The notes below the pieces were generated by a model. It searched no databases, was not told the origin of the DNA, and saw nothing but the letters and a program-made list of their open reading frames with translations. From a virus (taxonomy: Duplodnaviria; Heunggongvirae; Uroviricota; Caudoviricetes), in IMG/VR virus record IMGVR_UViG_2657244971_000001: a stretch of 17,384 nucleotides of DNA; one strand, 5' to 3'. Positions 2,734 to 17,384 of this stretch are shown piece after piece. Made by a program: the position numbers and the translations under genes. Within the stretch, counting starts at the first letter, position 1, and every line of letters begins with the position of its first letter.

Positions 2734-2892
2734 TTGGTGTTCTTTCAGTTCTTCAATTCGAATATTGGTTATGTCTGCATGTGCTATCTGCGCCCATATC
2801 ATCCAGTGGTCGTAGCAGTCGTTGATGTTCTCCGCTTCGATAACTCTGTTGAATGGCTCTCCATTCCATTCTCCTGTGACTCGGAAGTGCAT
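2725..2892 (-). CDS. Small lambda early-left ORF of 55 codons between xis and ea8.5 (hypothetical protein)
   Basis: Manually translated minus-strand ORF MHFRVTGEWNGEPFNRVIEAENINDCYDHWMIWAQIAHADITNIRIEELKEHQAA (55 aa); below the length cut-off of the supplied ORF track; position corresponds to the 55-codon ORF annotated in lambda. Confidence 0.5.
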   Translation of the reverse strand: MHFRVTGEWNGEPFNRVIEAENINDCYDHWMIWAQIAHADITNIRIEELKEHQAA

Positions 2893-2980
2893 TTATCATC
2901 TCCATAAAACAAAACCCGCCGTAGCGAGTTCAGATAAAATAAATCCCCGCGAGTGCGAGGATTGTTATGTAATATTGGGT

Positions 2981-3262
2981 TTAATCATCTATATGTTTTG
3001 TACAGAGAGGGCAAGTATCGTTTCCACCGTACTCGTGATAATAATTTTGCACGGTATCAGTCATTTCTCGCACATTGCAGAATGGGGATTTGTCTTCATT
3101 AGACTTATAAACCTTCATGGAATATTTGTATGCCGACTCTATATCTATACCTTCATCTACATAAACACCTTCGTGATGTCTGCATGGAGACAAGACACCG
3201 GATCTGCACAACATTGATAACGCCCAATCTTTTTGCTCAGACTCTAACTCATTGATACTCAT
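2981..3262 (-). CDS. ea8.5: Lambda Ea8.5 protein (function unknown)
   Basis: 93-aa ORF with Cys/His-rich C-terminus; size and position after xis match lambda ea8.5. Confidence 0.85.
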   Translation of the reverse strand: MSINELESEQKDWALSMLCRSGVLSPCRHHEGVYVDEGIDIESAYKYSMKVYKSNEDKSPFCNVREMTDTVQNYYHEYGGNDTCPLCTKHIDD

Positions 3263-3453
3263 TTATAAACTCCTTGCAATGTATGTCGTTTCAGCTAAAC
3301 GGTATCAGCAATGTTTATGTAAAGAAACAGTAAGATAATACTCAACCCGATGTTTGAGTACGGTCATCATCTGACACTACAGACTCTGGCATCGCTGTGA
3401 AGACGACGCGAAATTCAGCATTTTCACAAGCGTTATCTTTTACAAAACCGATC

Positions 3454-4002
3454 TCACTCTCCTTTGATGCGAATGCCAGCGTCAGACATCATATGCAGAT
3501 ACTCACCTGCATCCTGAACCCATTGACCTCCAACCCCGTAATAGCGATGCGTAATGATGTCGATAGTTACTAACGGGTCTTGTTCGATTAACTGCCGCAG
3601 AAACTCTTCCAGGTCACCAGTGCAGTGCTTGATAACAGGAGTCTTCCCAGGATGGCGAACAACAAGAAACTGGTTTCCGTCTTCACGGACTTCGTTGCTT
3701 TCCAGTTTAGCAATACGCTTACTCCCATCCGAGATAACACCTTCGTAATACTCACGCTGCTCGTTGAGTTTTGATTTTGCTGTTTCAAGCTCAACACGCA
3801 GTTTCCCTACTGTTAGCGCAATATCCTCGTTCTCCTGGTCGCGGCGTTTGATGTATTGCTGGTTTCTTTCCCGTTCATCCAGCAGTTCCAGCACAATCGA
3901 TGGTGTTACCAATTCATGGAAAAGGTCTGCGTCAAATCCCCAGTCGTCATGCATTGCCTGCTCTGCCGCTTCACGCAGTGCCTGAGAGTTAATTTCGCTC
4001 AC
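3454..4002 (-). CDS. ea22: Lambda Ea22 protein (coiled-coil protein, function unknown)
   Basis: 182-aa ORF; size, position and sequence as recalled for lambda Ea22. Confidence 0.85.
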   Translation of the reverse strand: MSEINSQALREAAEQAMHDDWGFDADLFHELVTPSIVLELLDERERNQQYIKRRDQENEDIALTVGKLRVELETAKSKLNEQREYYEGVISDGSKRIAKLESNEVREDGNQFLVVRHPGKTPVIKHCTGDLEEFLRQLIEQDPLVTIDIITHRYYGVGGQWVQDAGEYLHMMSDAGIRIKGE

Positions 4003-4220
4003 TTCGAACCTCTCTGTTTACTGATAAGTTCCAGATCCTCCTGGCAACTTGCACAAGTCCGACAACCCTGAACGGCCAAGCGTCTTCGTTCATCTATCGG
4101 ATCGCCACACTCACAACAATGAGTGGCAGATATAGCCTGGTGGTTCAGGCGGCGCATTTTTATTGCTGTGTTGCGCTGTAATTCTTCAATTTCTGATGCT
4201 GAATCAATGATGTCTGCCAT
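3999..4220 (-). CDS. TraR/DksA-type C4 zinc-finger protein (lambda Orf73-like RNA-polymerase-binding factor)
   Basis: 73-aa ORF with CxxC...CxxC motif (CCECGDPIDERRRLAVQGCRTCASC) typical of the TraR/DksA family; start overlaps the ea22 stop by 4 nt. Confidence 0.8.
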   Translation of the reverse strand: MADIIDSASEIEELQRNTAIKMRRLNHQAISATHCCECGDPIDERRRLAVQGCRTCASCQEDLELISKQRGSK

Positions 4221-4273
4221 CTTTCATTAATCCCTGAATTGTTGGTTAATACGCTTGAGGGTGAATGCGAATA

Positions 4274-4297
4274 ATAAAAAAGGAGCCTGTAGCTCCC
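4274..4297 (-). terminator. Rho-independent terminator candidate on the minus strand (RNA: GGGAGC-UACAG-GCUCCU followed by UUUUUU)
   Basis: Plus-strand AAAAAAGGAGCCTGTAGCTCC; hairpin plus U-tract in the direction of early-left transcription, between the orf61-position ORF and orf73. Confidence 0.5.
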
Positions 4298-4318
4298 TGA
4301 TGATTTTGCTTTTCATGT

Positions 4319-4630
4319 TCATCGTTCCTTAAAGACGCCGTTTAACATGCCGATTGCCAGGCTTAAATGAGTCGGTGTGAATCCCATCAGCGTTACCGTT
4401 TCGCGGTGCTTCTTCAGTACGCTACGGCAAATGTCATCGACGTTTTTATCCGGAAACTGCTGTCTGGCTTTTTTGATTTCAGAATTAGCCTGACGGGCAA
4501 TGCTGCGAAGGGCGTTTTCCTGCTGAGGTGTCATTGAACAAGTCCCATGTCGGCAAGCATAAGCACACAGAATATGAAGCCCGCTGCCAGAAAAATGCAT
4601 TCCGTGGTTGTCATACCTGGTCTCTCTCAT
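4319..4630 (-). CDS. Hypothetical protein at the lambda orf61 position, but 103 codons long here
   Basis: ATG at 4628-4630 overlapping the orf63 3' end by 20 nt, as expected for lambda orf61; the reading frame stays open for 103 codons instead of 61. Confidence 0.45.
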   Translation of the reverse strand: MRETRYDNHGMHFSGSGLHILCAYACRHGTCSMTPQQENALRSIARQANSEIKKARQQFPDKNVDDICRSVLKKHRETVTLMGFTPTHLSLAIGMLNGVFKER

Positions 4631-4802
4631 CTGCTTCTGCTTTCGCCACCATCATTTCCAGCTTTTGTGAAAGGGATGCGGCTAACGTATGAAATTCTTC
4701 GTCTGTTTCTACTGGTATTGGCACAAACCTGACTCCAATTTGAGCGAGGCTATGTGCCATCTCGATACTCGTTCTTAACTCAACGGGAGATGCTTTGTGC
4801 AT
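4611..4802 (-). CDS. Lambda Orf63 (hypothetical protein)
   Basis: 63-aa ORF; length and neighbourhood match lambda orf63. Confidence 0.7.
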   Translation of the reverse strand: MHKASPVELRTSIEMAHSLAQIGVRFVPIPVETDEEFHTLAASLSQKLEMMVAKAEADERDQV

Positions 4803-4957
4803 ACAGCTCCCCGTTTATTATTTATCTCCTCAGCCAGCCGCTGTGCTTTCAGGGGATTTCGGATAACAGAAAGGCCGGGAAATACCCAGCCTCGCTTCGT
4901 AACGGAGTAGACGAAAGTGATCGTGCCTACGCGGATATTATCGTGAGGATGTTTCAT
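4775..4957 (-). CDS. Lambda Orf60a (hypothetical protein)
   Basis: 60 codons from the ATG at 4955-4957 (the ORF track extends 2 codons upstream); start overlaps the exo stop by 4 nt. Confidence 0.6.
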
Positions 4958-5634
4958 CGCCATTGCTCCCCAAATACAAAACCAATTTCAGCCAGTGCCT
5001 CGTCCATTTTTTCGATGAACTCCGGCACCATCTCGTCAAAACTCGCTATATACTTTTCATTCCGCTCAATCACGACATAATGCAGGCCTTCACGCTTCAT
5101 ACGCGGGTCATAGTTGGCAAAGTACCAGGCATCTTTTCGCGTCACCCACATGCTGTACTGCACCTGGGCCATGTAAGCCGACTTTATGGCCTCGAAACCA
5201 CCGAGCCGGAATTTCATGAAATCCCGGGAGGTAAACGGGCATTTCAGCTCAAGGCCATTGCCGTCACTGCATAAACCATCGGGAGAGCAGGCGGTGCGCA
5301 TACTTTCGTCGCGATAGATGATCGGGGATTCAATAACATTTACGCCGGAAGTGAACTCAAACAGGGTTCTGGCGTCGTTCTCGTACTGTTTTCCCCAGGC
5401 CAGCGCTTTAGCGTTAACTTCCGGAGCCACACCGGTGCAAACCTCAGCTAGCAGGGTGTGGAAGTAGGACATTTTCATGTCAGGCCACTTCTTTCCTGAT
5501 CGGGGCTTTGCTATCACGTTGTGAACTTCTGAAGCGGTGATGACGCCGAGCCGTAATTTGTGCCATGCATCATCCCCCTGTTCGACAGCTCTCACGTCGA
5601 TCCCGGTACGCTGCAGGATAATGTCCGGTGTCAT
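4954..5634 (-). CDS. exo: Lambda exonuclease (Red-alpha, 5'-3' dsDNA exonuclease)
   Basis: 226-aa [43 protein letters not shown]... matching lambda Exo as recalled. Confidence 0.95.
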
Positions 5635-6011
5635 GCTGCCACCTTCTGCTCAGTGGCTTTCTGTTTCAGGAATCCAAGAGCTTTCACTGCTTCGGCCTGT
5701 GTCAGTTCTGACGATGCGCGAATGTCGCGGCGAAATATCTGGGAACAGAGCGGCAATAAGTCGTCATCCCATGTTTTATCCAGGGCGATCAGCAGAGTGT
5801 TAATCTCCTGCATGGTTTCATCGTTAATGGCTTTTTTGCTGGCCCCGTGGCGTTGCAAATGATCGATGCATAGCGATTCAAACAGGTGCTGGGGCAGGCT
5901 TTTTTCCATGTCGTCTGCCAGTTCTGCCTCTTTCTCTTCACGGGCGAGCTGCTGGTAGTGACGCGCCCAGCTCTGAGCCTCAAGACGATCCTGAATGTAA
6001 TAAGCGTTCAT
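5631..6011 (-). CDS. In-frame chimeric ORF: N-terminal ~62 aa like lambda Gam (short form, [43 protein letters not shown]) fused to C-terminal ~64 aa like lambda Bet ([60 protein letters not shown]); probable deletion derivative of gam-bet
   Basis: 126-aa ORF; good Shine-Dalgarno (AGGAG 9 nt upstream of the ATG at 6009-6011); stop overlaps the exo start exactly as the bet stop does in lambda. An in-frame TAA about 19 codons upstream of the ATG excludes a long-form Gam start. Confidence 0.75.
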
Positions 6012-6326
6012 GGCTGAACTCCTGAAAATGGCTGTGAAAATATCGCCCGCGAAATGCCAGGCTGATTAGGAAAACAGGAAAGGGGGGGTTAGTGATTCAG
6101 GCCGTTACCGCGTCCGTCGAGAAAAACTTCCACGAGCAAATCACTGGTATAAGTGCGCTCGATGCCGCGATGCAGATAAAGCCGTCCGCGTAAATTAGCT
6201 GATGCAGTCCAGGTAACTGTGTTAAGTTCTCGTTAACATTAGGGGTAACATAGGGAGTATAAGATAGTGGAATGCATCATTTTATTGTTGCGAAAATGAT
6301 CGAACCAGCTGGATATCGTGTATCAT

Positions 6327-8300
6327 ATGGAACCGATGATAACTTTCATGGAATGTCTCGGTATATATATGAAAATTAGACCACAGCAGCACCTAATTAA
6401 CATCCTGACTTCAACCAAACAACATCATCCAAATTTTACTCTTTTTCTTGGTGCAGGTGCTAGTATCTCAAGTGGTGTTGATAGTGCTGGTGGGATGATA
6501 AGGCGCTGGAGAGATGCTTACACTCTAATGTATGGAGAAGATGCTCTCAAAAAACAAGTTTGGTACGATAAAGATAATGAGTATTCAGAGCTTTTTGAAG
6601 CATTATATGATCAACCAACTCAAAGAAGAGAATTTATTGAAAGTTGTATTACCGCAGCTAAACCATCTTGGGGATACGTTTATCTCACAAATCTATTGGA
6701 TAAAGGCCATTTTAATACAATTTTTACGACTAACTTCGATGATTTAGTCAATGAAGCTTGCTTTACCTTTTCTAATAATCTGAGACCAATAGTGTGTGCC
6801 CACGATTCAAGTATCAACAGCATACGTTTAACCACAGCTCGGCCAAAAATAATAAAATTACATGGTGATTTTTTATTTGACAATATCAAGAATACTATAA
6901 GGGAGCTTGAGTCACTTGAAGATAACATGAGGGCCAAATTTAGACAGTTTGCAACTGAATTTGGCATGATCGTTATTGGGTACTCGGGACACGACCGTTC
7001 AATTATGGATACTCTCAATACGTTATTGCATTCCGGTAGTTGTTTTCCTCATGGGATTTATTGGTGTATCTGTGACTCAGACACTGAAAAACTTTCTGAG
7101 CAACTTAAAAATCTGGCCCGCTTTCCTCATTTTCATCTTATTAAAATTAATGGATTTGATGAGTTCATGGCTGAATTACATTACGCATTAGGCTGTAATT
7201 TGCAGCAAGAGGTAGTAGAGCCATACTCTGCATTATCTAATAAACTAGATAGATATTTCTCTATAGCTGAAGAAGATGACGCAGATGTCCAGCATGAGAT
7301 TATTAAAAGAGATATGAATAATCTTGCTGATCATGTCAGGAGAGTGAATACAGTAAGCCAGTTTGTAAAAAAAATAAAAGTACTTCTTTCAGAGAAAGAC
7401 TCATCGTTAGATGATAATTCGATCACTAAATCTTTAGAAATAATGTTAAAGGAAACTAAATTTGCTGGTTCTCCTGAGGGGATTCATTTTTATAATACCC
7501 CCAATTATTTGATTGCAAACTCTGCATTTCGTGCTGGAGAGTATAATGAATGTGTAGAATATGCTACTAAACATCTGGCTAATGGGAAATCTCTCGAAAC
7601 AGAAGTATTAATACTTCGTTCCTATATTCATTTGGATAATGATTCTGAAATACAAAAGTCAATAGAAAGAATAACAAGTTATAACAAAATGAATGATGGT
7701 GAAGTTGGCAAGCTTGTAAATGGATTAGTGGACTTAATGGATGCTAAAAAATTCAAAATTGCGAATAGCCTTATGGACATACTTGAATCCCGAACAATAC
7801 CGTCTAAACATAAGCAGTTATTGCTTATAAATAGAGTTCTTTGCAACAAATTACAAAAGCAGCCGCTTTCAGCAAAACAGCAACAAGAGCTTGAGGAAGT
7901 GCTGAATGAAGTGATAGATAAAAACGAAGCTTGGCTTGCTCTGGGGGCTGCTATACTTTTAGAAAAATGGGACATTGCTGAAGAAGTGCTATCAGCATTA
8001 GATGAAACTGAGATAGTTACAATATTGACGCAATCAATGCCGATTTTTGACTTGATTTCTACAGAGTTTTATGAAAAGGTCAAGTTAGTAGCTATAGAGC
8101 GTGGTTATAACGTTTCATTCGAAGAAGAAACGGAGTTACCAGAGGTTGTTCCTGCTGAGGATGAGACTCAAAGTCTCAGTCCTGATGTGAGAGAAATACC
8201 TACAGATAAAAAGAAAGCCATAACTCACAAATCAGCAGACAATGATGAGGCATTTGATGGATTACGCACTGGCGAAGAAAGTATAAGCAAACCAGCTTAA
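6327..8300 (+). CDS. SIR2-family (SIR2_2-like, defence-associated sirtuin type) protein with an uncharacterised alpha-helical C-terminal half; candidate NAD+-hydrolysing anti-phage effector. Start ambiguous: GTG 6318 or ATG 6327/6336/6348/6369
   Basis: 660-codon open frame. Motifs seen: FLGAGAS (nt 6444-6464, Gly-rich dinucleotide-binding loop), TTNFDDLVNEA (Asn codon at 6732-6734), KLHGDF (His codon at 6861-6863), IGYSGHD. Asn/His spacing (43 residues) is comparable to the catalytic N/H pair of ThsA and DSR-type sirtuins. AT-rich codon usage by eye, unlike the flanking lambda genes. Confidence 0.8.
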   Translation: MEPMITFMECLGIYMKIRPQQHLINILTSTKQHHPNFTLFLGAGASISSGVDSAGGMIRRWRDAYTLMYGEDALKKQVWYDKDNEYSELFEALYDQPTQRREFIESCITAAKPSWGYVYLTNLLDKGHFNTIFTTNFDDLVNEACFTFSNNLRPIVCAHDSSINSIRLTTARPKIIKLHGDFLFDNIKNTIRELESLEDNMRAKFRQFATEFGMIVIGYSGHDRSIMDTLNTLLHSGSCFPHGIYWCICDSDTEKLSEQLKNLARFPHFHLIKINGFDEFMAELHYALGCNLQQEVVEPYSALSNKLDRYFSIAEEDDADVQHEIIKRDMNNLADHVRRVNTVSQFVKKIKVLLSEKDSSLDDNSITKSLEIMLKETKFAGSPEGIHFYNTPNYLIANSAFRAGEYNECVEYATKHLANGKSLETEVLILRSYIHLDNDSEIQKSIERITSYNKMNDGEVGKLVNGLVDLMDAKKFKIANSLMDILESRTIPSKHKQLLLINRVLCNKLQKQPLSAKQQQELEEVLNEVIDKNEAWLALGAAILLEKWDIAEEVLSALDETEIVTILTQSMPIFDLISTEFYEKVKLVAIERGYNVSFEEETELPEVVPAEDETQSLSPDVREIPTDKKKAITHKSADNDEAFDGLRTGEESISKPA

Positions 8301-8336
8301 TAATTGAACAGTGATTAACTGAGAGTGAAGGGGCTT

Positions 8337-8420
8337 ATGAAGCAGAAAAATATCAACAACCAAAGCAGAATTTCTGAAGAAAGTAAGAAAAAAATCAAGG
8401 AAATGCTTAAAAAACAATAA
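8337..8420 (+). CDS. Lysine-rich 27-codon micro-ORF (MKQKNINNQSRISEESKKKIKEMLKKQ) immediately downstream of the SIR2-family gene; speculative
   Basis: ATG at 8337 preceded by GAAGGGG Shine-Dalgarno-like sequence about 5 nt upstream; ends 3 nt before the terminator hairpin; too short for the ORF track. Confidence 0.3.
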   Translation: MKQKNINNQSRISEESKKKIKEMLKKQ

Positions 8421-8423
8421 ATT

Positions 8424-8447
8424 AAAAGACCCCGCAAGGGGTCTTTT
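8424..8447. terminator. Strong rho-independent terminator (AAAAGACCCC-GCAA-GGGGTCTTTT), potentially bidirectional
   Basis: Perfect 10-bp stem with 4-nt loop, flanked by an A-run on one side and a T-run on the other. Confidence 0.75.
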
Positions 8448-9031
8448 AATAACTATTGGCCAGTTTTTAATGAAATCATGCTTAATACAATGTGATTTTT
8501 TTCACTTGTCGTAGTGCCGATCTGATTGCCATCGTCACAGGTACTCAGTAGCGAAAAAATACGTCTACTGGGTACCAATTATCCTCAATGAGAAGTGCAG
8601 CGCGCTCCAATAAAAAGGTGATTCACCGACAGCGAACTTTGTACACTCGCTTGGTTATGGCGAGCAGGTGATGCTAACCGCCTGCCAGAATGTCACTCCA
8701 CTTCCTCAAGTATCTGAGCGACGTGAAGCCGGTGGCTTGACTTACATCGAGCAAAAATATTTCCTGGCTCACAATAGGGTGCGAGCAATCGATTCAGAAC
8801 GGTATTAGAGCTGCTAATGATCCTTCATATTGCGCCTAAATCCACAAAATTGATTTTCAATAATCAACCCGCCATAATCATCTCATCGGAGCCTGAACAA
8901 CTCCGGTGACTTCTGCGCTAAACGGGGACGTTTATGCGCACACACAATCCAAACTCACTTCTCCCGTCACAGATGCAGAAATGCACCTGCAATTCTTTGC
9001 ATCTAACGTTTGACCTCTGCGGAGGTGAAGC

Positions 9032-9487
9032 GTGAACCTCTCACAAGACGGCATCAAATTACATCGCGGCAACTTCACCGCTATCGGCCAGCAGATCCAG
9101 CCTTATCTGGAGGAAGGCAAATGCTTTCGCATGGTGCTTAAACCGTGGCGAGAGAGACGCAGTCTTTCCCAGAATGCACTCAGCCACATGTGGTACAGCG
9201 AAATCAGTGAATACCTCATCAGCAGGGGGAAATCGTTCGCTACCGCAGCATGGGTAAAAGATGCTCTCAAACACACATACCTCGGTTATGAAACCAAGGA
9301 CCTGGTTGATGTCGTAACCGGCGAAATCACTACTATCCAGTCGTTACGCCATACCTCCGATCTTGATACCGGAGAGATGTATGTCTTCCTGTGTAAGGTT
9401 GAAGCCTGGGCGATGAATATTGGCTGTCACCTGACTATTCCGCAGAGCTGCGAGTTCCAGCTGCTCCGCGACAAGCAGGAGGCGTAA
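9032..9487 (+). CDS. ninB: NinB-family recombination protein (DLP12 YbcN-like)
   Basis: 151-aa ORF starting at GTG with GGAGGTG Shine-Dalgarno; contains an [13 protein letters not shown] segment reminiscent of the lambda NinB RSLDQNRKLW motif; first gene of a nin-type block. Confidence 0.75.
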
Positions 9488-9657
9488 TGGCTACACCGCT
9501 TATTCGTGTCATGAACGGACACATCTACAGAGTATCAAATCGTCGTAAGCGTAAGCCTGAGCTGAAGCCATCCGAAATACCAACACTGCTCGGATATACC
9601 GCTAGCCTGGTTGATAAAAAATGGTTGCGACTGGCAGCAAGGAGGAATCATGGCTGA
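9487..9657 (+). CDS. ninE: NinE-family small protein
   Basis: Manually translated 56-aa [59 protein letters not shown]; its ATG overlaps the ninB-like stop (TAATG). Confidence 0.7.
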   Translation: MATPLIRVMNGHIYRVSNRRKRKPELKPSEIPTLLGYTASLVDKKWLRLAARRNHG

Positions 9658-9940
9658 TTTGAGAAAAGCAGCGCGTGGTCGGGAATGCCAGGTAAGAATC
9701 CCTGGCGTATGTAATGGCAATTCTGAGACGTCTGTACTGGCACATATCCGGCTGGCTGGATTGTGCGGTACCGGTATCAAACCGCCAGACCTGATTGCCA
9801 CCATTGCATGTTCTGCCTGCCACGACGAAATCGACCGCCGCACACATTTTGTCGATGCTGCATATGCAAAAGAATGCGCGCTGGAAGGTATGGCGAGAAC
9901 ACAGGTTATCTGGCTGAAAGAGGGGGTTATTAAGGCGTGA
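9650..9940 (+). CDS. ybcO: YbcO-like protein (DUF1364, putative Zn-binding nuclease of lambdoid nin regions)
   Basis: 96 codons from ATG 9650 (GGAGG 5 nt upstream); cysteine-rich ([12 protein letters not shown]...CSACHDEID); the ORF track extends upstream from a TTG. Confidence 0.75.
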
Positions 9941-10299
9941 ATACCTACAGCATCACATTACCCTGGCCTCCGAGCAATAATCGCTATTACCGCCATAATC
10001 GCGGACGCACGCACATCAGCGCAGAGGGGCAGGCATACCGCGATAACGTCGCCCGAATCATTAAAAACGCAATGCTAGATATCGGCCTGGCTATGCCTGT
10101 GAAAATCCGCATTGAGTGCCACATGCCGGATCGCCGTCGCCGTGACCTGGATAATCTGCAAAAAGCCGCTTTTGACGCACTCACTAAAGCAGGTTTCTGG
10201 CTGGATGATGCTCAGGTCGTTGATTACCGCGTTGTGAAGATGCCTGTTACCAAAGGTGGGAGGCTGGAACTGACCATCACCGAAATGGGGAATGAATGA
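9937..10299 (+). CDS. rusA: RusA Holliday-junction resolvase
   Basis: 120-aa [41 protein letters not shown]... matching DLP12 RusA as recalled; start overlaps the ybcO stop. Confidence 0.9.
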
Positions 10300-10436
10300 T
10301 GTTTGAGTTTAATATGGCAGAACTTCTTCGCCACCGCTGGGGGCGTCTGCGCTTATATCGTTTCCCCGGTTCTGTTTTGACCGATTACCGAATACTGAAG
10401 AATTACGCCAAAACACTGACAGGAGCAGGAGTATGA
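10296..10436 (+). CDS. ylcG: YlcG-like small protein (46 aa)
   Basis: Manually translated [46 protein letters not shown]; start overlaps the rusA stop (ATGA). Confidence 0.55.
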
Positions 10437-10521
10437 AGTCAGAGATAACAATCAACTAATACTGTTTTGTTGATTTTTGCTTGTAATTGGCGTTCTGGTC
10501 TGAGTTTTGTGGAGTAAGTTG

Positions 10522-10899
10522 ATGCGTGATATTCAGATGGTTCTTGAGCGTTGGGGAGCGTGGGCGGCTAATAATCATGAAGATGTGACCTGGTCGTCCA
10601 TTGCCGCCGGTTTTAAGGGATTAATTCCTTCAAAAGTAAAATCTCGCCCACAATGTTGTGACGATGACGCGATGATCATTTGCGGGTGCATGGCCCGTCT
10701 GAAAAAGAACAACAGCGATTTGCATGATTTATTGGTGGACTATTATGTCGGCGGCATGACTTTTATGGCGCTTGCACGTAAGCATGGGCGATCTGATTGT
10801 TGGGTTGGCAGGATGCTTCAGAAAGCTGAGGGCGTAGTGGAGGGTATGCTGATGGTGTTGGATCTCCGATTGGAGATGGATGCTGATTGTTCGAAATAA
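10522..10899 (+). CDS. quuD: Late-gene antiterminator Q (phage 82 / DLP12 QuuD type)
   Basis: ATG at 10522 with GGAG 7 nt upstream; protein [33 protein letters not shown]...[16 protein letters not shown] matches the QuuD type as recalled; followed by a promoter-like element and terminator. Confidence 0.85.
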
Positions 10900-10911
10900 T
10901 TAAAGGAAAAG

Positions 10912-10940
10912 TTGCTGTCTGATTGTCATTAGTCTAACAT
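10912..10940 (+). promoter_or_regulatory. Candidate late promoter pR' (-35 TTGCTG, 17-bp spacer, -10 TAACAT) downstream of Q
   Basis: Hexamers read directly from the sequence; the position immediately after Q and before a terminator mirrors the lambdoid pR'-qut-tR' arrangement. Not verifiable without experiment. Confidence 0.35.
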
Positions 10941-11000
10941 TTTAAATGTTGGAATCGCAACGTAGTTATTATCATATAACAGCTTGTTTCCTGATTTAGC

Positions 11001-11027
11001 CAGCCTCCCCAAAGGCTGGTTTTTTTC
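11001..11027 (+). terminator. Rho-independent terminator (CCAGCC-TCCCCAAA-GGCTGG followed by T7), likely tR'-type terminator of the short late leader RNA
   Basis: 6-bp GC-rich stem followed by TTTTTTT on the plus strand. Confidence 0.6.
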
Positions 11028-11054
11028 TAATAAGTATTATTTCGGGTAGGGATT

Positions 11055-11579
11055 TTATTGTTTAACCCATAATAATTCATTGACATTGAATCCCAACTTT
11101 TGAGCGGTTCGCACATAGTCTGCTTTTACTTTATCTGGAATAGTTGGGGTCCTTGCCAGAATCCATAGGTATTCTCTGTTCGGACCACTGACAAGAGCAT
11201 ACTTATACTCATCATCCAGTTTGATTACATTATAGCCACCATAGAAGGGGCCAAAAAACGAAACCTTCAATGCTGCAGTTTTAGTATCTCCAGTAAAGTA
11301 TGCTTTACCTTCGCTCTCGCTCCATTTATTTTTCGTTGGATCGTATCCACGGTTAAGTACACGAATCCCTCCGTCGTTCCGTTTTCCATAAGTAGCGCTG
11401 ACCTGTTCCAGACCACGTTCGAACCGGTTCTCGAGGCGAGCTATTTCATACCATTTTCCGAGGTAGCGGTTGGCGTCAAAATTTGTAATCGGCTGCACAC
11501 CTTTAGGTGGTGTCGGGGCCTTACATGCTATAAGAGTGAAAGAGAGTGCAATGCCAGTCAACACAGGCCATAACTTCAT
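11055..11579 (-). CDS. Blc-like bacterial lipocalin, outer-membrane lipoprotein (moron cargo)
   Basis: 174-aa ORF with lipoprotein signal and lipobox (..FTLIAC); strong similarity to E. coli Blc as recalled (NFDANRYLGKWYEIARLENRFERGLE...KVSFFGPFYGGYNVI...YLWILARTP); AGGA Shine-Dalgarno about 8 nt upstream. Confidence 0.85.
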   Translation of the reverse strand: MKLWPVLTGIALSFTLIACKAPTPPKGVQPITNFDANRYLGKWYEIARLENRFERGLEQVSATYGKRNDGGIRVLNRGYDPTKNKWSESEGKAYFTGDTKTAALKVSFFGPFYGGYNVIKLDDEYKYALVSGPNREYLWILARTPTIPDKVKADYVRTAQKLGFNVNELLWVKQ

Positions 11580-11611
11580 AATAAATCCTGTACTTTTGAT
11601 AGTTGAGAGTA

Positions 11612-11661
11612 AGTATGAAAGATAGATGATTACGACCGATCACTTAAAGAACTTTCATACT
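11612..11661. repeat. Perfect 10-bp inverted repeat AGTATGAAAG ... CTTTCATACT separated by 30 nt, in the divergent intergenic region between the lipocalin gene and the DUF523/DUF1722 gene
   Basis: Arms at 11612-11621 and 11652-11661 are exact reverse complements. Confidence 0.6.
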
Positions 11662-11771
11662 ATATTAGGAATAGTCCATAACAGAAAAATTGTCAGTGAT
11701 GACGCCAGAAAGGCAATTTATTCCGTGCACTACACAGTTTATGTGTTAATGAATTAGTCAAGGGGGAGAAT

Positions 11772-12731
11772 ATGATAAAAAAACCTGTGATTGGAATCAG
11801 CGGTTGTTTGGCCGGTTCTGCTGTTCGTTTTGATGGTGGTCACAAAAGAGCTGACTTTTTAATGGACAAATTAGTGGAATGGGTAACATTCAGACCAGTA
11901 TGTCCGGAAATGGCTATAGGGCTGCCAGTTCCGCGTCCTGCTCTACGTCTTGTGCGCTCGACGCAAGGAAATATACGGATGTGTTTCAGCCACGACCAGA
12001 ATGAGGATGTGACAGAGAGAATGACAGAGTTTAGTCGTTCTTATATGGACAAATTAAAGGATGTATCGGGGTTTGTGGTTTGTGCTAAATCTCCCAGCTG
12101 TGGCATGGAGCGCGTGCGTGTCTATGATGAAAATGGTAATCGAGGTCGTAAAGATGGAGTGGGACTATTTACGAGCACTTTGATGGAAAAGTTTTCCTGG
12201 CTACCGGTTGAAGAGGATGGGCGATTACATGATCCAGTGCTTCGTGAGAATTTTGTTGAAAGAGTTTTTGCTTTGCATGAGCTCAATCACCTTTACAAGG
12301 AGAAATTATCAAGAAGAGAGTTATTAGCTTTTCATAGTCGTTATAAGCTTCAGTTGTTGGCGCATAGTCAGGCAGGCTATAAAGATATGGGACCATTTGT
12401 GGCTGCAATACACGAGTGGGCGGACCTTGAATCATACTTTGAGGTGTATCGTGATAAGCTGATGGCGATTCTCAGAAAACCTGCATCACGTAAAAATCAC
12501 ACGAATGTGCTGATGCATATACAGGGGTATTTTAGTAACTACTTAAGTACACGCCAGCGTAAAGAGTTGAGCGAGGTTATACTTAACTATCGTTCTGGCA
12601 CATTACCTCTTCTTGCGCCGTTGACTCTGCTGAAGCATTATCTGGGTGAGTATCCTAATGATTACTTGCTTACACAGAATTACTTCGATCCCTATCCGGA
12701 CGAACTGGCTCTAAGACTGATGGTAAATTAA
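11772..12731 (+). CDS. DUF523 (TudS-like 4Fe-4S thiouracil-desulfidase fold) / DUF1722 (YbgA-like) fusion protein
   Basis: 319-aa ORF with AGGGGGAG Shine-Dalgarno; N-terminus GISGCLAG..C..C-type cysteines typical of the DUF523 family, C-terminal half resembling YbgA-type DUF1722. Confidence 0.75.
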   Translation: MIKKPVIGISGCLAGSAVRFDGGHKRADFLMDKLVEWVTFRPVCPEMAIGLPVPRPALRLVRSTQGNIRMCFSHDQNEDVTERMTEFSRSYMDKLKDVSGFVVCAKSPSCGMERVRVYDENGNRGRKDGVGLFTSTLMEKFSWLPVEEDGRLHDPVLRENFVERVFALHELNHLYKEKLSRRELLAFHSRYKLQLLAHSQAGYKDMGPFVAAIHEWADLESYFEVYRDKLMAILRKPASRKNHTNVLMHIQGYFSNYLSTRQRKELSEVILNYRSGTLPLLAPLTLLKHYLGEYPNDYLLTQNYFDPYPDELALRLMVN

Positions 12732-13082
12732 TTGTATGCGATATCATCCAAAAGGATGAGTTCCTGCATGCAGGATATTTACAATCGTAAAAACTACACT
12801 ATGATACCCAGAGTGTCAGTTTGTATAAAAACTCTGTTTACGCTGAAGAAACAATTGAGATGCAACTTAAAGTTGGTAAACATGCCAGTCAAAATATATA
12901 ATATTATGATTCCACGCAGCTATATATAATATAACGGATTGGTTTAATAATTTGTCTTTGTGAGTTAAATACATAATTTTATACTTGTGATGCAATGAAA
13001 TTTTCCTTATTGTTGAACTGGCGAATATTGATTTTCCACCTATACTTACCTGGTGTAACCCCAATGATATCAGGTGGATAAT

Positions 13083-13814
13083 ATGCCATACATATGTTCT
13101 ATCATTTTGGTGTTGAACTCGTTTGATGTCCGAATTGGTAAAGAAGATATTTTGTTTAAAAAAGGAAGTGCTGTTCTCATTGATTACAATTTAAAAGATT
13201 TTTTTTCATCAAATATAGATCATGTAATGATCGTAGATGTTGAAGAGAAAACAGTTAATGATTTCTTTAAAAGCAACACACTCTCACCTTTTTCTGTAAG
13301 AAGGTTTTATCCGGCATACTTGATGGTGGAATGTGAAGATTTTTCATTGTTAAAGAACTTGATTGCATGCTTGAATTGTGATGGCAGAACTGTGGATTTT
13401 GTTAGAAATCAAATATCACTTGCATGTCTTGCTATCTTATCTTCAGAGAAAATAGTGCAAAGTTTTTTATTTGGATGTCTTAATAGTTTAGGAAGTAAAG
13501 TTAAGGCTATTATTCACACGGATATATCTGCGGCATGGAGACTTTGTGATATATCTTCAAGACTGTATCTGAGTGAAAGTCTGTTAAAAAGAAAATTAAA
13601 GCACGAAGGCTTATCATTTAGTAAGTTAATTCTTGAAGAGCGAATGGTGATGGCGGAAAGGTTATTAAGCTACAATTTATATTCTGTTGGAAAAGTTGCT
13701 GAGATATGCGGTTATGAAAACACGTCATATTTTGTAAGTGTTTTCAGAAGGTATTTTTGTGTTCCTCCCCATCAATATTCATCAAGATTTTTTTTAGAAA
13801 AAGACATGATGTAA
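13083..13814 (+). CDS. AraC/XylS-family transcriptional regulator (AppY/GadX/Rns-like small activator) in a strongly AT-rich islet
   Basis: C-terminal double helix-turn-helix signature (..LYLSESLLKRKLKHEGLSFSKLILEERMVMAERLL...VGKVAEICGYENTSYFVSVFRRYF); ATG 13083 preceded by AGGTGG; the ORF track starts at an upstream GTG (13074). Confidence 0.8.
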   Translation: MPYICSIILVLNSFDVRIGKEDILFKKGSAVLIDYNLKDFFSSNIDHVMIVDVEEKTVNDFFKSNTLSPFSVRRFYPAYLMVECEDFSLLKNLIACLNCDGRTVDFVRNQISLACLAILSSEKIVQSFLFGCLNSLGSKVKAIIHTDISAAWRLCDISSRLYLSESLLKRKLKHEGLSFSKLILEERMVMAERLLSYNLYSVGKVAEICGYENTSYFVSVFRRYFCVPPHQYSSRFFLEKDMM

Positions 13815-14001
13815 CGTGATGCGTTTTAATGATTTTGTAATTTTCGTATTTGATAATTGTATGATGCTTTCAGCTACGCCAGAATAATCGCGGCGTTTTT
13901 CTTTTTGAATAGATGTTCAAGCCTTACGCTAATGTAACTTCTATACCTTTCCTCTTCGTTCCGAACCGTGTACACCATCCGTTATTTGCGGAGGTGAGGC
14001 T

Positions 14002-14217
14002 ATGAAATCCATGGATAAGTTAACAACGGGCATTGCCTACGGCACCTCCGCAGGCAGTGCTGGCTACTGGTTTTTACAGCTGCTCGATAAAGTCACGCCC
14101 TCACAGTGGGCAGCAATAGGTGTGCTGGGTAGCTTGGTATTTGGCCTGCTGACGTACCTGACAAACCTTTATTTCAAGATTAAAGAAGATAAGCGCAAGG
14201 CTGCGAGAGGTGAATAA
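14002..14217 (+). CDS. essD: Class II holin / pinholin (phage 21 S21 / DLP12 EssD type) with dual-start motif MKSM
   Basis: 71-aa [63 protein letters not shown]... matching S21/EssD as recalled; two predicted TM helices. Confidence 0.9.
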
Positions 14218-14714
14218 TGCCTCCATCATTACGAAAAGCCGTTGCTGCTGCTATTGGTGGCGGAGCAATTGCTATAGCATCAGTGTTAATCACTGGCCCA
14301 AGTGGTAACGATGGTCTGGAAGGTGTCAGCTACATACCATACAAAGATATCGTTGGCGTATGGACTGTATGTCACGGGCATACAGGAAAAGACATCATTC
14401 CCGGTAAAACGTATACCGAAGCAGAATGCAAAGCCCTCCTGAATAAAGACCTTGCCACGGTAGCCAGACAAATTAACCCGTACATCAAAGTCGATATACC
14501 GGAAACAACGCGCGGCGCTCTTTACTCGTTCGTCTATAACGTGGGCGCAGGCAATTTCAGAACATCTACTCTTCTTCGCAAAATAAACCAGGGCGATATC
14601 AAGGGCGCATGTGACCAGCTACGTCGCTGGGCATACGCTGGCGGTAAGCAATGGAAAGGCCTGATGACTCGTCGTGAGATTGAGCGTGAGGTCTGTTTGT
14701 GGGGGCAACAATGA
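14217..14714 (+). CDS. rrrD: SAR endolysin (signal-anchor-release lysozyme, R21 / RrrD type)
   Basis: 165-aa ORF with Gly/Ala-rich N-terminal SAR helix ([20 protein letters not shown]) followed by a lysozyme domain; start overlaps the holin stop by 1 nt. Confidence 0.9.
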
Positions 14715-15175
14715 GCAGGGTAACCGCGATTATCTCCGCTCTGGTTATCTGCATCATCGTCTGCCTGTCATGGGCTGTTAATCATTACCGTGATAATGCA
14801 ATCGCCTACAAAGAACAGCGCGATAACAAGGCCAGTGAACTGGAGAAGGCGAACGCCACCATTACTGACATGCAGATGCGTCAGCGTGATGTTGCTGCGC
14901 TCGATGCAAAATACACGAAGGAGTTAGCTGATGCGAAAGCTGAAAATGATGTTCTGCGTGATGATGTTGCCGCTGGTCGTCGTCGGTTGCACATCAAAGC
15001 AGTCTGTCAGTCAGTGCGTGAAGCCACCACCGCCTCCGGCGTGGATAATGCAGCCTCCCCCCGACTGGCAGACACCGCTGAACGGGATTATTTCACCCTC
15101 CGGGAACGACTGGTAATGATGCAGGCCCAACTTGAAGGTGCTCAGCAATACATAACCGAGCAGTGTTTAAAGTAA
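14711..15175 (+). CDS. rzpD: Rz inner-membrane spanin (i-spanin)
   Basis: N-terminal TM helix followed by a coiled-coil-rich periplasmic domain; ATG at 14711 overlaps the endolysin stop. Confidence 0.85.
14931..15116 (+). CDS. rzoD: Rz1 outer-membrane lipoprotein spanin (o-spanin), embedded in the +1 frame of Rz
   Basis: 61-aa ORF with lipobox (VVGC) and proline-rich mature segment ([16 protein letters not shown]); the embedded Rz/Rz1 architecture is classic. Confidence 0.8.
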
Positions 15176-15312
15176 AATCTTAACTACAATATGATTCATT
15201 TTGATGATTGTTTCATAAGGAACAGTGAAGTAAGATCTAAGAGGAGTTAAATTTTATACAGTATAATCATAATATTGCAGCAAGGTGGTTATAATTGAAA
15301 GAATATTTAGAT

Positions 15313-16770
15313 ATGAATACATCTCATGTAAGAGTTGTTACTCATATGTGTGGGTTCCTGGTTTGGCTCTATAGTCTTTCAATGTTGCCACCAATGGTTG
15401 TAGCATTGTTTTATAAAGAAAAAAGCCTGTTCGTTTTCTTTATAACTTTCGTTATATTTTTTTGCATTGGTGGCGGAGCGTGGTATACAACTAAGAAATC
15501 TGGCATTCAATTACGTACCCGTGATGGGTTTATTATAATTGTAATGTTTTGGATTTTGTTTTCTGTTATTAGTGCATTCCCTTTATGGATTGACTCAGAA
15601 CTTAATTTAACGTTCATTGATGCTCTGTTTGAAGGGGTTTCTGGAATAACAACAACAGGAGCAACTGTAATTGATGATGTTAGTTCATTACCTCGGGCAT
15701 ATTTGTACTATCGGTCACAGTTAAATTTTATAGGTGGTTTAGGAGTTATTGTTCTGGCGGTTGCTGTATTGCCATTATTGGGTATTGGTGGTGCAAAGCT
15801 TTATCAGTCAGAAATGCCGGGGCCATTTAAGGATGACAAACTCACTCCCCGCCTGGCCGATACGTCACGGACACTGTGGATAACTTATTCTTTATTAGGT
15901 ATTGCTTGTATTGTCTGTTATAGACTTGCAGGAATGCCTTTGTTTGATGCTATTTGTCACGGGATTTCCACAGTTTCGCTTGGTGGTTTCTCAACTCATA
16001 GCGAGAGTATCGGATATTTTAATAACTATTTGGTTGAGCTGGTGGCTGGTTCTTTTTCCCTGCTATCGGCTTTCAACTTCACTCTTTGGTATATTGTTAT
16101 TAGCAGGAAAACGATAAAACCTTTAATCAGAGATATTGAACTTCGTTTCTTTCTGTTAATAGCCTTAGGGGTGATCATTGTTACCTCTTTCCAGGTCTGG
16201 CATATAGGTATGTATGACTTGCATGGAAGTTTTATTCATTCGTTTTTTCTTGCCAGTTCCATGCTCACTGATAATGGTTTAGCTACGCAGGATTATGCAA
16301 GTTGGCCCACGCACACGATAGTGTTTTTGCTGTTGTCAAGTTTCTTTGGGGGATGTATAGGTTCAACTTGTGGTGGAATTAAGTCACTTCGATTTCTTAT
16401 ACTTTTCAAACAAAGCAAACACGAGATAAATCAGCTTTCTCATCCCAGAGCGTTGTTGAGTGTAAATGTAGGAGGGAAGATAGTTACAGATCGTGTAATG
16501 AGGTCTGTATGGAGTTTCTTTTTTCTTTATACTCTCTTCACGGTGTTTTTTATACTGGTGTTAAATGGTATGGGATATGATTTTCTTACATCATTTGCAA
16601 CAGTGGCTGCATGTATTAATAATATGGGATTAGGTTTTGGGGCTACTGCATCGTCATTCGGAGTGCTTAATGACATTGCAAAATGTTTAATGTGCATAGC
16701 TATGATTCTTGGTCGCCTTGAAATTTATCCTGTTATTATATTGTTTTCAGGTTTTTTTTGGCGCTCCTAA
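15313..16770 (+). CDS. trkG: TrkH/TrkG-family potassium uptake membrane protein (Rac prophage TrkG-like moron)
   Basis: 485 codons from ATG 15313 (the ORF track starts at an upstream TTG); polytopic membrane protein matching E. coli TrkG as recalled; AT-rich; sits directly after Rz/Rz1, as in Rac. Confidence 0.9.
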   Translation: MNTSHVRVVTHMCGFLVWLYSLSMLPPMVVALFYKEKSLFVFFITFVIFFCIGGGAWYTTKKSGIQLRTRDGFIIIVMFWILFSVISAFPLWIDSELNLTFIDALFEGVSGITTTGATVIDDVSSLPRAYLYYRSQLNFIGGLGVIVLAVAVLPLLGIGGAKLYQSEMPGPFKDDKLTPRLADTSRTLWITYSLLGIACIVCYRLAGMPLFDAICHGISTVSLGGFSTHSESIGYFNNYLVELVAGSFSLLSAFNFTLWYIVISRKTIKPLIRDIELRFFLLIALGVIIVTSFQVWHIGMYDLHGSFIHSFFLASSMLTDNGLATQDYASWPTHTIVFLLLSSFFGGCIGSTCGGIKSLRFLILFKQSKHEINQLSHPRALLSVNVGGKIVTDRVMRSVWSFFFLYTLFTVFFILVLNGMGYDFLTSFATVAACINNMGLGFGATASSFGVLNDIAKCLMCIAMILGRLEIYPVIILFSGFFWRS

Positions 16771-16907
16771 TATATGGCTGATTTATAATTGTGAGTTTAA
16801 TATTATGTTGACTCACTCATTGATCCAATACCTAACTTTACCAGCAACCCCTCCGTCCCCAGTAGCACTGGCTGCTGGGGTGCGTTTTATTCATAAAGCA
16901 AGGCTGT

Positions 16908-17384
16908 ATGAGCGAGAAATTAAAGATAGTCTATCGCCCATTACAAGAATTGTCACCGTATGCGCACAACGCCAGGACGCACAGTACTGAGCAGGTGGCA
17001 CAACTGGTAGAAAGTATTAAGCAATTCGGCTGGACTAATCCGGTGCTGATTGACGAAAAGGGCGAAATTATTGCGGGTCACGGTCGTGTTATGGCGGCTG
17101 AAATGCTCAAAATGGATTCTGTTCCGGTCATTGTTCTGTCTGGCCTGACGGATGAGCAGAAAAAGGCGTACCGCCTGGCAGATAATCGCCTGCCGATGAA
17201 TGCTGGCTGGGATGAAGATCTGTTGCGGATGGAGCTGTCGGACCTAATCAATGCTGATTTTGATGTCTCCCTGACAGGCTTCATCCCGACAGAAATTGAT
17301 GAACTGTTGACGGATGTTTTGCCCGGTATGCGTGGCTGGACGATTAAGGGCAAACCTGCCAGTGGTCGGGCCGTATTGTCTCAG
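16908..17384 (+). CDS. ParB-like nuclease-domain protein, 5' part only (open to the window edge; possibly the N-terminal domain of a phage ParB-methyltransferase)
   Basis: Manually translated open frame MSEKLKIVYRPLQELSPYAHNARTHSTEQVAQLVESIKQFGWTNPVLIDEKGEIIAGHGRVMAAEML... with no stop before position 17384; absent from the ORF track because it is incomplete. Confidence 0.65.
   Translation, partial: MSEKLKIVYRPLQELSPYAHNARTHSTEQVAQLVESIKQFGWTNPVLIDEKGEIIAGHGRVMAAEMLKMDSVPVIVLSGLTDEQKKAYRLADNRLPMNAGWDEDLLRMELSDLINADFDVSLTGFIPTEIDELLTDVLPGMRGWTIKGKPASGRAVLSQ

Follow-up and report, generated by a model that had tools for sequence, protein, structure and literature searches.

The virus record IMGVR_UViG_2657244971_000001 is a stretch of 17,384 nucleotides (nt), called here the window, which corresponds to a defective lambdoid prophage of Escherichia coli adjoining ybhC, in the lambda attachment region. 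An AT-rich islet of this prophage (12732-13990) encodes an intact, selected and mobile AraC-type DNA-binding protein with conserved candidate transcription signals. The islet looks like an autonomous phage moron: a promoter-gene-terminator unit, rich in AT and acquired horizontally, in the slot that lambdoid phages have between the Q antiterminator and holin genes. On balance, and with some reserve, we favor the view that this moron encodes a trans-acting AraC/XylS factor which most likely modulates the acid-resistance genes of the host. Prophage AraC regulators are a known class, of which this is a paralogue not yet characterised, packaged as a textbook moron; it introduces no new category of mechanism.

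An intact AraC/XylS regulator

The gene which is central to this work is the following.

13083..13814, + strand: intact AraC/XylS-family regulator of 243 amino acids (aa), open reading frame (ORF) 13074/13083-13814, with an N-terminal domain (~1-132) and a DNA-binding domain with two helix-turn-helix motifs (~133-235)

RefSeq annotates the identical 732-bp coding sequence, named only "helix-turn-helix domain-containing protein". An earlier note on this DNA had recognised a 243-aa AraC/XylS regulator by eye, and had named the lack of a functional helix-turn-helix (HTH) domain, or of any shift in base composition, as findings that would speak against its reading. Both were examined, and the reading of the note held in the parts that were open to testing. 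The shift is present (see below) and the domain is complete according to Pfam, to a structural model and to superposition: the ~100-aa C-terminal domain has the two HTH motifs which characterise the AraC/XylS family (HTH_18, 51 bits for a cutoff of 33.6, residues 158-234; HTH_AraC, 35.2 bits for a cutoff of 26.6). The protein also matches PHROG 1450, a family of "unknown function", with 354 bits.

The AlphaFold model, built with 29 homologues, has a predicted local distance difference test score (pLDDT) of 88.3 and a predicted template modelling score (pTM) of 0.82. It consists of a small β-rich N-terminal domain and a C-terminal domain of seven helices (over residues 136-242), which superposes on the GadX domain 3mkl with a root-mean-square deviation of 1.1-1.4 Å and a template modelling (TM) score of 0.88-0.91. 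The best full-length fold matches obtained with Foldseek are CsvR, Rns and ToxT (E 1e-10 to 1e-6, TM ~0.44, 17-21% identity).

The regulator aligns over its full length (233-237 aa, 31-53% identity) with GadW, YdeO, AppY, PatE and PsrA, and shares with this subgroup a start of the form M-x3-C-S-(V/I), in which M1 and C5 are invariant in 12 sequences. A homology search against AppY, PatE and GadX, which the note had proposed, shows that the nearest characterised relatives are prophage regulators: ECs0287, inferred to be PatE, is 53% identical (over 235 aa), PsrA (ECs1087, compared as its extended full ORF of 237 aa) 39% and AppY 31%; the values for GadW and YdeO are 33% and 31%. The N-terminal resemblance to AppY, GadX and Rns that had been suggested holds for AppY, and also for GadW, YdeO, PatE and PsrA, whereas by sequence GadX and Rns resemble the regulator in the C-terminal half only.

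The NCBIfam models give a similar picture. The best one is that of YdeO (NF007407), which matches residues 1-236 with 123.7 bits, far from the equivalog cutoff of 348, and the regulator is therefore a relative of YdeO rather than its orthologue. The GadX equivalog (NF007432) reaches 82 bits over residues 100-235 only, for a cutoff of 500, and like GadX, HilD and other models cover the C-terminal domain only.

When the N-terminal domain was used as the sole query in an exhaustive search of 1.84 billion proteins, 11 representative clusters were retrieved, including PatE-type, PsrA-type and YdeO-like proteins. Judged by sequence, this presumably signal-sensing half is a very narrow, Escherichia-centred family. 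Similarly, among prokaryotic genomes scanned at one per species, the regulator had no match beyond a single contig (L012; JARKOR010000151.1, 3209 bp), binned as 'Candidatus Nanosynbacter sp.', whose gene and flanks are 98% identical and which is almost certainly mis-binned E. coli DNA. The ratio of nonsynonymous to synonymous substitution rates (dN/dS) between alleles is 0.22-0.26 over the whole gene, which indicates long-term purifying selection, and 0.13-0.15 in the DNA-binding domain. No mention of this protein, or of the phage IdasGreatGrand which carries it, was found in the literature.

An AT-rich islet with conserved candidate transcription signals

The sharp compositional drop reported by eye over ~12740-13900 is confirmed by a windowed calculation. 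In 300-bp windows the guanine-cytosine (GC) content is 0.417 at 12451-12750, 0.30-0.33 over 12751-13950 and 0.50 at 13951-14250. Positions 12732-13990 have a GC content of 0.328, compared to 0.423 in the left and 0.490 in the right flank of equal length, and the narrower span 12732-13900 has 0.322. The long AT-rich non-coding stretches that had been described around the gene (0.318) are indeed there: 351 bp upstream (12732-13082, 0.322) and 187 bp downstream (13815-14001, 0.396). Over all 1259-bp windows of the 17.4 kb, the mean is 0.436 (standard deviation 0.051) and the minimum, 0.324, lies at 12656; only 0.8% of these windows are at the level of the islet or below. The GC content at third codon positions is 0.27 in the regulator gene, 0.40 in ybgA and 0.56 in essD. 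Two more AT-rich cargo stretches exist in the window (~6150-8550 and ~15150-16800), the regulator islet being the most extreme of the three. From composition alone, silencing of the islet by H-NS is plausible.

The islet was aligned in three diverged alleles: the window type, that of locus L007 (~89% nt identity in the gene) and that of locus L008 (~87%). The signals are as follows.

12732..13082, + strand: AT-rich (32% GC) promoter/leader region of the regulator, non-coding
12778..12805, + strand: candidate sigma-70 promoter P1 (TTTACA, 16 nt, TATGAT; 10/12 consensus), block TTTACAATCGTAAAAACTnCnCTATGAT
13070..13075, + strand: Shine-Dalgarno sequence AGGTGG, 7 nt before the ATG at 13083, kept in L007, L008, L016 and L017
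13876..13906, + strand: moron terminator, intrinsic (arms ACGCCAG and CTGGCGT, 8 nt apart, followed by T5CT5), located after the regulator gene and before the holin gene

The P1 block TTTACAATCGTAAAAACTnCnCTATGAT, which implies a leader of ~270 nt, is kept in 3/3 alleles, in a spacer whose identity is 66-68% with many indels (window type or L007 vs L008). A second, stronger-looking match at 12873-12902 (TTGGTA, 18 nt, TATAAT) was rejected: a 54-bp insertion splits it in one allele, and it is missing from another. Two 65-aa ORFs of the spacer, at 12732-12929 (+) and 12867-13064 (-), were also rejected as genes and judged non-coding because of their many indels between alleles (57-94 positions).

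The terminator is conserved in L007, L008, the phage locus L011 and L012, with a fold of -11.3 kcal/mol; like the P1 block, it persists across alleles that share 82-89% identity. The window and L001 copies have a 1-nt deletion, of a T in the 3' arm, and a weaker fold (-7.3 kcal/mol); the terminator scan missed this site because the deletion interrupts the stem of the window copy. The weakened terminator could permit more read-through from the regulator promoter into the lysis genes.

In the sense of Hendrix and Juhala, a gene is a moron if it has been added between conserved phage genes, has a promoter and a terminator to itself and is atypical in base composition. The islet has these properties: it is inserted between Q and the holin gene, its GC content is that given above, and it holds a conserved sigma-70-like block, whose promoter activity is predicted, and a conserved hairpin followed by a T-run.

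The Q-to-holin slot

The borders of the slot and the other genes inside it are listed below.

10507..10899, + strand: Q antiterminator gene (Pfam Phage_antitermQ, 173 bits; PHROG 79; RefSeq start = 10522), upstream border of the slot
10998..11030, + strand: strong intrinsic terminator ~100 nt after Q, putative tR' of the late leader
11055..11579, - strand: Blc-like outer-membrane lipocalin lipoprotein, a separate cargo gene (Pfam Lipocalin_2, 149.7 bits; NCBIfam Blc subfamily, 316 bits)
11772..12731, + strand: YbgA-like cargo gene, 319 aa, fusion of a 2-thiouracil desulfurase domain (TudS/DUF523) and DUF1722 (Pfam PF04463, PF08349)
13991..15175, + strand: lysis cassette (essD 14002-14217, rrrD 14217-14714, rzpD/Rz 14699-15175, Rz1 14931-15116)

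Homology with the DLP12 prophage of K-12 covers 8850-10881, from ylcH to near the end of Q (95%), and restarts at 13991-15165 (essD to rzpD, 92.8%). The segment 10882-13990 thus fills the slot that holds nmpC in DLP12. On the left, the Q gene and DLP12 quuD share 95% identity as far as 10881, where the homology stops. On the right, the point where it resumes, 13991, is the border, and the lysis genes match the Pfam families P21 holin S, Phage_lysozyme and Phage_lysis. The stop codon of ybgA is the left edge of the islet. The Blc-like lipocalin and the YbgA-like protein both belong to PHROG families of unknown function.

The terminator at 10998 is the sole terminator-like site given by the scan of 10400-14300; its fold has an energy of -14.9 kcal/mol (z = -3.35), which 0/200 shuffles equal. 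It is probably tR', which is expected at about this distance from Q, and it could double as the end of the convergent lipocalin gene. The region after Q was also compared with the DLP12 region after quuD to place pR', and no similarity was found. The islet is topologically within the late transcription unit, as had been proposed, with Q and the tR'-like terminator on one side and the holin-lysozyme-Rz genes on the other.

Distribution, modularity and recombination

A match to the islet is found in 1085 of the 5426 complete E. coli genomes, with a coverage of at least 80% in 873. It is carried by DLP12/Rac-like (window), Qin-like (L007) and lambda-like (L008) backbones, and in all three Q, blc and ybgA stand on one side of the islet and the holin gene on the other. 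The phage IdasGreatGrand is 99.2% identical across the whole 3.1-kb cargo segment, and eleven phage records of the Lambda_ev/1H12 type are ~90% identical to the islet. More distant relatives of the regulator (64% and 56% identity) are encoded directly downstream of Q without blc or ybgA; the gene of the 56% relative is also directly upstream of the holin gene, which here too is preceded by a terminator. The regulator is thus an independent cargo unit, and its link with blc and ybgA is specific to this lineage.

The comparison between the window and L007 shows that identity is 98.4% in ybgA and ~90% in the islet, the divergence jumping at the border between the two. The regulator gene is itself a mosaic (13083-13814 vs L007 7406-8119), with a synonymous divergence (dS) that rises from 0.08 over the first 132 codons to 0.68 over the C-terminal remainder. 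The jump and the shift in dS point to recombination, with a breakpoint within the regulator gene.

Two candidates for an empty ancestral site, in which ybgA abuts the holin gene, were rejected: both are IS1-mediated deletions. IS1 has inserted into the islet or deleted it in several genomes (L009 5001-5930; L010 5001-5800; H56), which fits the preference of IS1 for AT-rich DNA. Regulator gene calls truncated at the N- or C-terminus also exist (clusters P0011, P0014 and P0015).

Comparison with characterised regulators

The closest characterised relative is ECs0287 of strain Sakai (prophage Sp1). It is inferred to be PatE (Z0321) because it is the sole AraC-like gene of Sp1, at thrW, and Z0321 is the putative regulator of CP-933H, O-island 8. 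Like the regulator, it is prophage-borne, belongs to the same length class and has the M-x3-C-S start; the DNA-binding domains (133-235) are 71% identical and the recognition helix of HTH1, SESLLKRKLK, is identical. The genomic positions differ: PatE-type genes stand after a tail-fibre assembly gene near the attachment site (att) and integrase gene (int) in Sakai Sp1 and in phages mEp332 and ev099, rather than between Q and holin, although the relative mentioned above which is 56% identical to the regulator is 84% identical to ECs0287 and occupies the Q-to-holin slot. With 53% identity and a different prophage position, the regulator does not qualify as a PatE orthologue; it is a lineage paralogous to PatE. 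The targets of PatE have been shown experimentally, whereas the regulator is known here from its sequence. A review describes PatE and PsrB as activators of gadE/hdeAB that bind the hdeA promoter, and type III secretion as repressed by PsrA and PsrB by way of GadE. The expression of Z0321 is RpoS-dependent.

PsrA and PsrB (ECs1087 / Z1789, Z2104) belong to the same sequence group (39%) and to the same niche downstream of Q: PsrA follows Q in the lambdoid prophage Sp4, and in an Stx2k phage a gene of the PsrA type is found between Q and the tRNA-stx2 genes. They are more distant from the regulator than PatE (N-terminal domain 26% identical, DNA-binding domain 55%), and psrA is followed by tRNA genes, not by a terminator and a holin gene. 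They are linked to effector loci and Pch regulators, none of which is present in the window. RefSeq starts psrA of Sakai (ECs_1087, L006 23677-24390) at an internal methionine, giving 195 aa; the ORF runs 42 codons further upstream to MVVVCSVIM..., and this extension restores the conserved N-terminal motif of the family in a protein of 237 aa.

AppY, from DLP12 of K-12, is also AraC-type cargo, in a prophage whose late region is 93-95% identical to the one described here, and it shares with the regulator the N-terminal motif and 31% identity over the full length. In contrast, appY is at the far right end of DLP12, after tail-fibre remnants, while the Q-to-holin slot of DLP12 carries nmpC. AppY directly activates gadE, its gene is under H-NS and RpoS control, and its targets are pleiotropic and extend beyond acid resistance.

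GadW (33%) and YdeO (31%) align with the regulator over the full length. The similarity with GadX is confined to the C-terminal domain of the regulator, where the DNA-binding domains are 40% identical (over 101 aa in BLASTP) and superpose at 1.1 Å. Unlike the regulator, GadW, YdeO and GadX are encoded by chromosomal core or acid-island genes and are not phage cargo. Rns, CsvR and ToxT have the same plan, a small β-rich N-terminal domain and a two-HTH C-terminal domain, but their identity to the regulator is low and its N-terminal domain is ~30 residues shorter; the sequence matches cover residues 109-236 of the regulator for Rns and 22-233 for ToxT.

A mutable homopolymer in the regulator gene

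13199..13206, + strand: T8 homopolymer, codons 39-41 of the regulator; a T7 length is a frameshift, and the window copy is T8, intact

The T7 form splits the regulator into a 44-aa fragment and a 195-aa ORF, which is cluster P0011. Among the 534 complete genomes that match a 75-nt probe of the window-type allele, 232 (43%) have exactly T7 and most of the others T8, for a T8:T7 ratio of ~56:43. The annotation pipeline of NCBI (PGAP) labels the T7 copies 'frameshifted'. T7 is seen on at least two haplotypes, one of which is otherwise closest to a T8 genome, a situation that a single recombination could explain; the four T7 genomes sampled share one prophage haplotype. In the other alleles and in the paralogues the tract is interrupted. 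In our reading, the homopolymer is mutable and T7 is a common allele with loss of function. If strand slippage at the T8 run instead acted as an ON/OFF switch, the gene would be a contingency locus carried by a prophage, at which a transcription factor that modulates host acid resistance or virulence is reversibly silenced and switched on again within E. coli lineages. This would explain the coexistence of intact and frameshifted copies on more than one haplotype, but we regard it as improbable. In E. coli RL465 (L021 5177-6075), whose allele is frameshifted, the chromosome has an insertion of a WbuC-like gene and blaCTX-M-15 just downstream of the prophage lysis genes.

What the regulator may control

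A role as an activator of the acid fitness island is judged the most likely because the characterised relatives act on gadE/hdeAB. In a lysogen, the regulator would be transcribed from its own promoter, whose activity H-NS probably holds down and stress or stationary phase would increase, as is the case for appY and Z0321/patE, and the moron terminator would end the transcript ahead of the holin gene. The protein would then bind AT-rich sites at host promoters, most likely those of gadE and hdeAB. The outcome would be a higher glutamate-dependent acid resistance and, in strains with a LEE (locus of enterocyte effacement) island, an indirect decrease in type III secretion. If the phage is inducible, RNA polymerase modified by Q would pass both terminators; it would cross the lipocalin gene in antisense and continue through ybgA and the regulator into the lysis genes, so that the regulator and the lysis genes would be co-expressed.

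Several observations weigh against this scheme. The function is assigned from homology at 53% identity, and the identity with ECs0287 drops to 39% in the N-terminal domain (1-132), the one which presumably senses the signal. The HTH2 motifs differ at positions that likely contact bases (NTSYFVS in the regulator, SVSYFTY in ECs0287), and the operator specificity may therefore differ. Regarding expression, the H-NS nucleation motif TCGATAAATT has 0 matches with up to 2 mismatches in 12313-14011, and across the window it is not enriched (28 found vs 25.3 expected). P1 is a consensus match within AT-rich DNA, and a promoter scan of the region found 13 matches for 11.6 expected in shuffles; since this is no excess, it is the conservation of P1 that argues for it. 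The immunity and replication region of the prophage is lost, which makes Q-driven co-expression in the late operon doubtful in this strain. Lastly, given the frequency of the T7 frameshift, the gene is dispensable in many lineages.

The differences in the N-terminal domain and in HTH2 could also mean that the regulator modulates the host through another regulon, for example anaerobic or stationary-phase genes as AppY does (hya, app), or genes for virulence, motility or biofilm formation, and that it may respond to a lipid ligand in the manner of Rns and ToxT. The pleiotropy of AppY, whose targets go beyond the acid-resistance pathway, goes in the same direction, as does the fact that the best full-length folds are those of the fatty-acid-binding regulators Rns, CsvR and ToxT. 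However, the fold match has a TM score of only 0.44 with 17-19% identity, HTH1 is identical to that of ECs0287, and all five characterised members (GadW, YdeO, AppY, PatE and PsrA/B) converge on gadE/hdeAB. Another regulon is thus less probable than acid resistance, but it is the alternative to be taken most seriously. AraC-family regulators often control adjacent genes, and the regulator could be local, acting on the divergent blc-like lipocalin gene and on the YbgA/TudS-like gene in a three-gene functional cassette. The three genes do occur together in all three alleles of the lineage, across different phage backbones. Against this, the 64% and 56% relatives occupy the same slot without blc or ybgA, the paralogues of PatE and PsrA type stand beside other genes, a promoter-like block and a terminator belong to the islet itself, and the fall in identity from 98.4% to 90% at the border with ybgA indicates separate histories. 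A local role therefore appears unlikely.

The regulator could also serve the phage rather than its host, by controlling the downstream lysis genes or the lysis-lysogeny decision, given that in this lineage and in the 56% relative the gene is directly upstream of the holin gene, within the late unit. Lambdoid late genes, however, run on Q antitermination, the regulator and the holin gene have a conserved terminator between them, the PatE-type relatives and AppY adjoin tail-fibre genes or att, and frameshifted copies persist in 232 genomes. In addition, all the characterised relatives act at host promoters. We give this explanation the least weight of all. Hardly more credible is the idea that the islet is a decaying passenger, a functionless AT-rich leftover which is silenced and being lost. 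The T7 frameshift in 43% of the complete genomes with this allele, the IS1 insertions and deletions that remove the islet in some strains, the truncated gene calls and the defective state of the carrier prophage agree with decay. But the window copy is full length, isolated viable phages hold intact copies, the promoter-like block and the terminator are conserved, and dN/dS is low (0.22-0.26, and 0.13-0.15 in the DNA-binding domain).

The rest of the prophage

Positions 1-2846 and 8891-17328 of the window are 99% identical to strain 2017.15.02CC, in which the RefSeq order is ybhC, integrase, excisionase, then ybcN-ninE-ybcO-rusA-ylcG, Q, lipocalin, YbgA, HTH protein, essD-rrrD-rzpD, trkG and ynaK. 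In that strain, IS1 stands in place of 2847-8890. The left arm of the prophage stops at a truncated gam, and an AT-rich SIR2-like gene replaces the immunity/replication region. This gene (6318-8300, + strand, in the AT-rich block ~6150-8550) is between the truncated gam and ylcH/ybcN. It encodes a 660-aa protein with an N-terminal SIR2-like domain, which matches Pfam SIR2_2, the Argonaute-associated SIR2 models of PADLOC (up to 210 bits), the PADLOC candidate PDC-S65 and PHROG 23427, and is a candidate anti-phage defence gene. PADLOC gave no match for the regulator, blc or ybgA. A scan of the whole window with Rfam (gathering thresholds) and for tRNAs gave no matches.

A gene for a trkG-like potassium transporter (15295-16770, 31-41% GC) directly follows the Rz gene. 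In the near-identical strain, trkG is followed by a ynaK/ParB-like sequence, as in the Rac prophage, and locus L017 has the same order behind a PatE-like regulator.

Biological significance

Prophage AraC regulators (AppY, PatE and PsrA/B) feed the gadE/hdeAB circuit, and thereby affect gastric survival and the timing of virulence-gene expression. Viable lambda-like phages and about one fifth of the complete E. coli genomes carry the lineage described here, which had not been studied. Should its action resemble that of its relatives, it would be a widespread, mobile and often inactivated source of variation between strains in acid resistance, and the strains with T8 and T7 would provide a natural on/off comparison.

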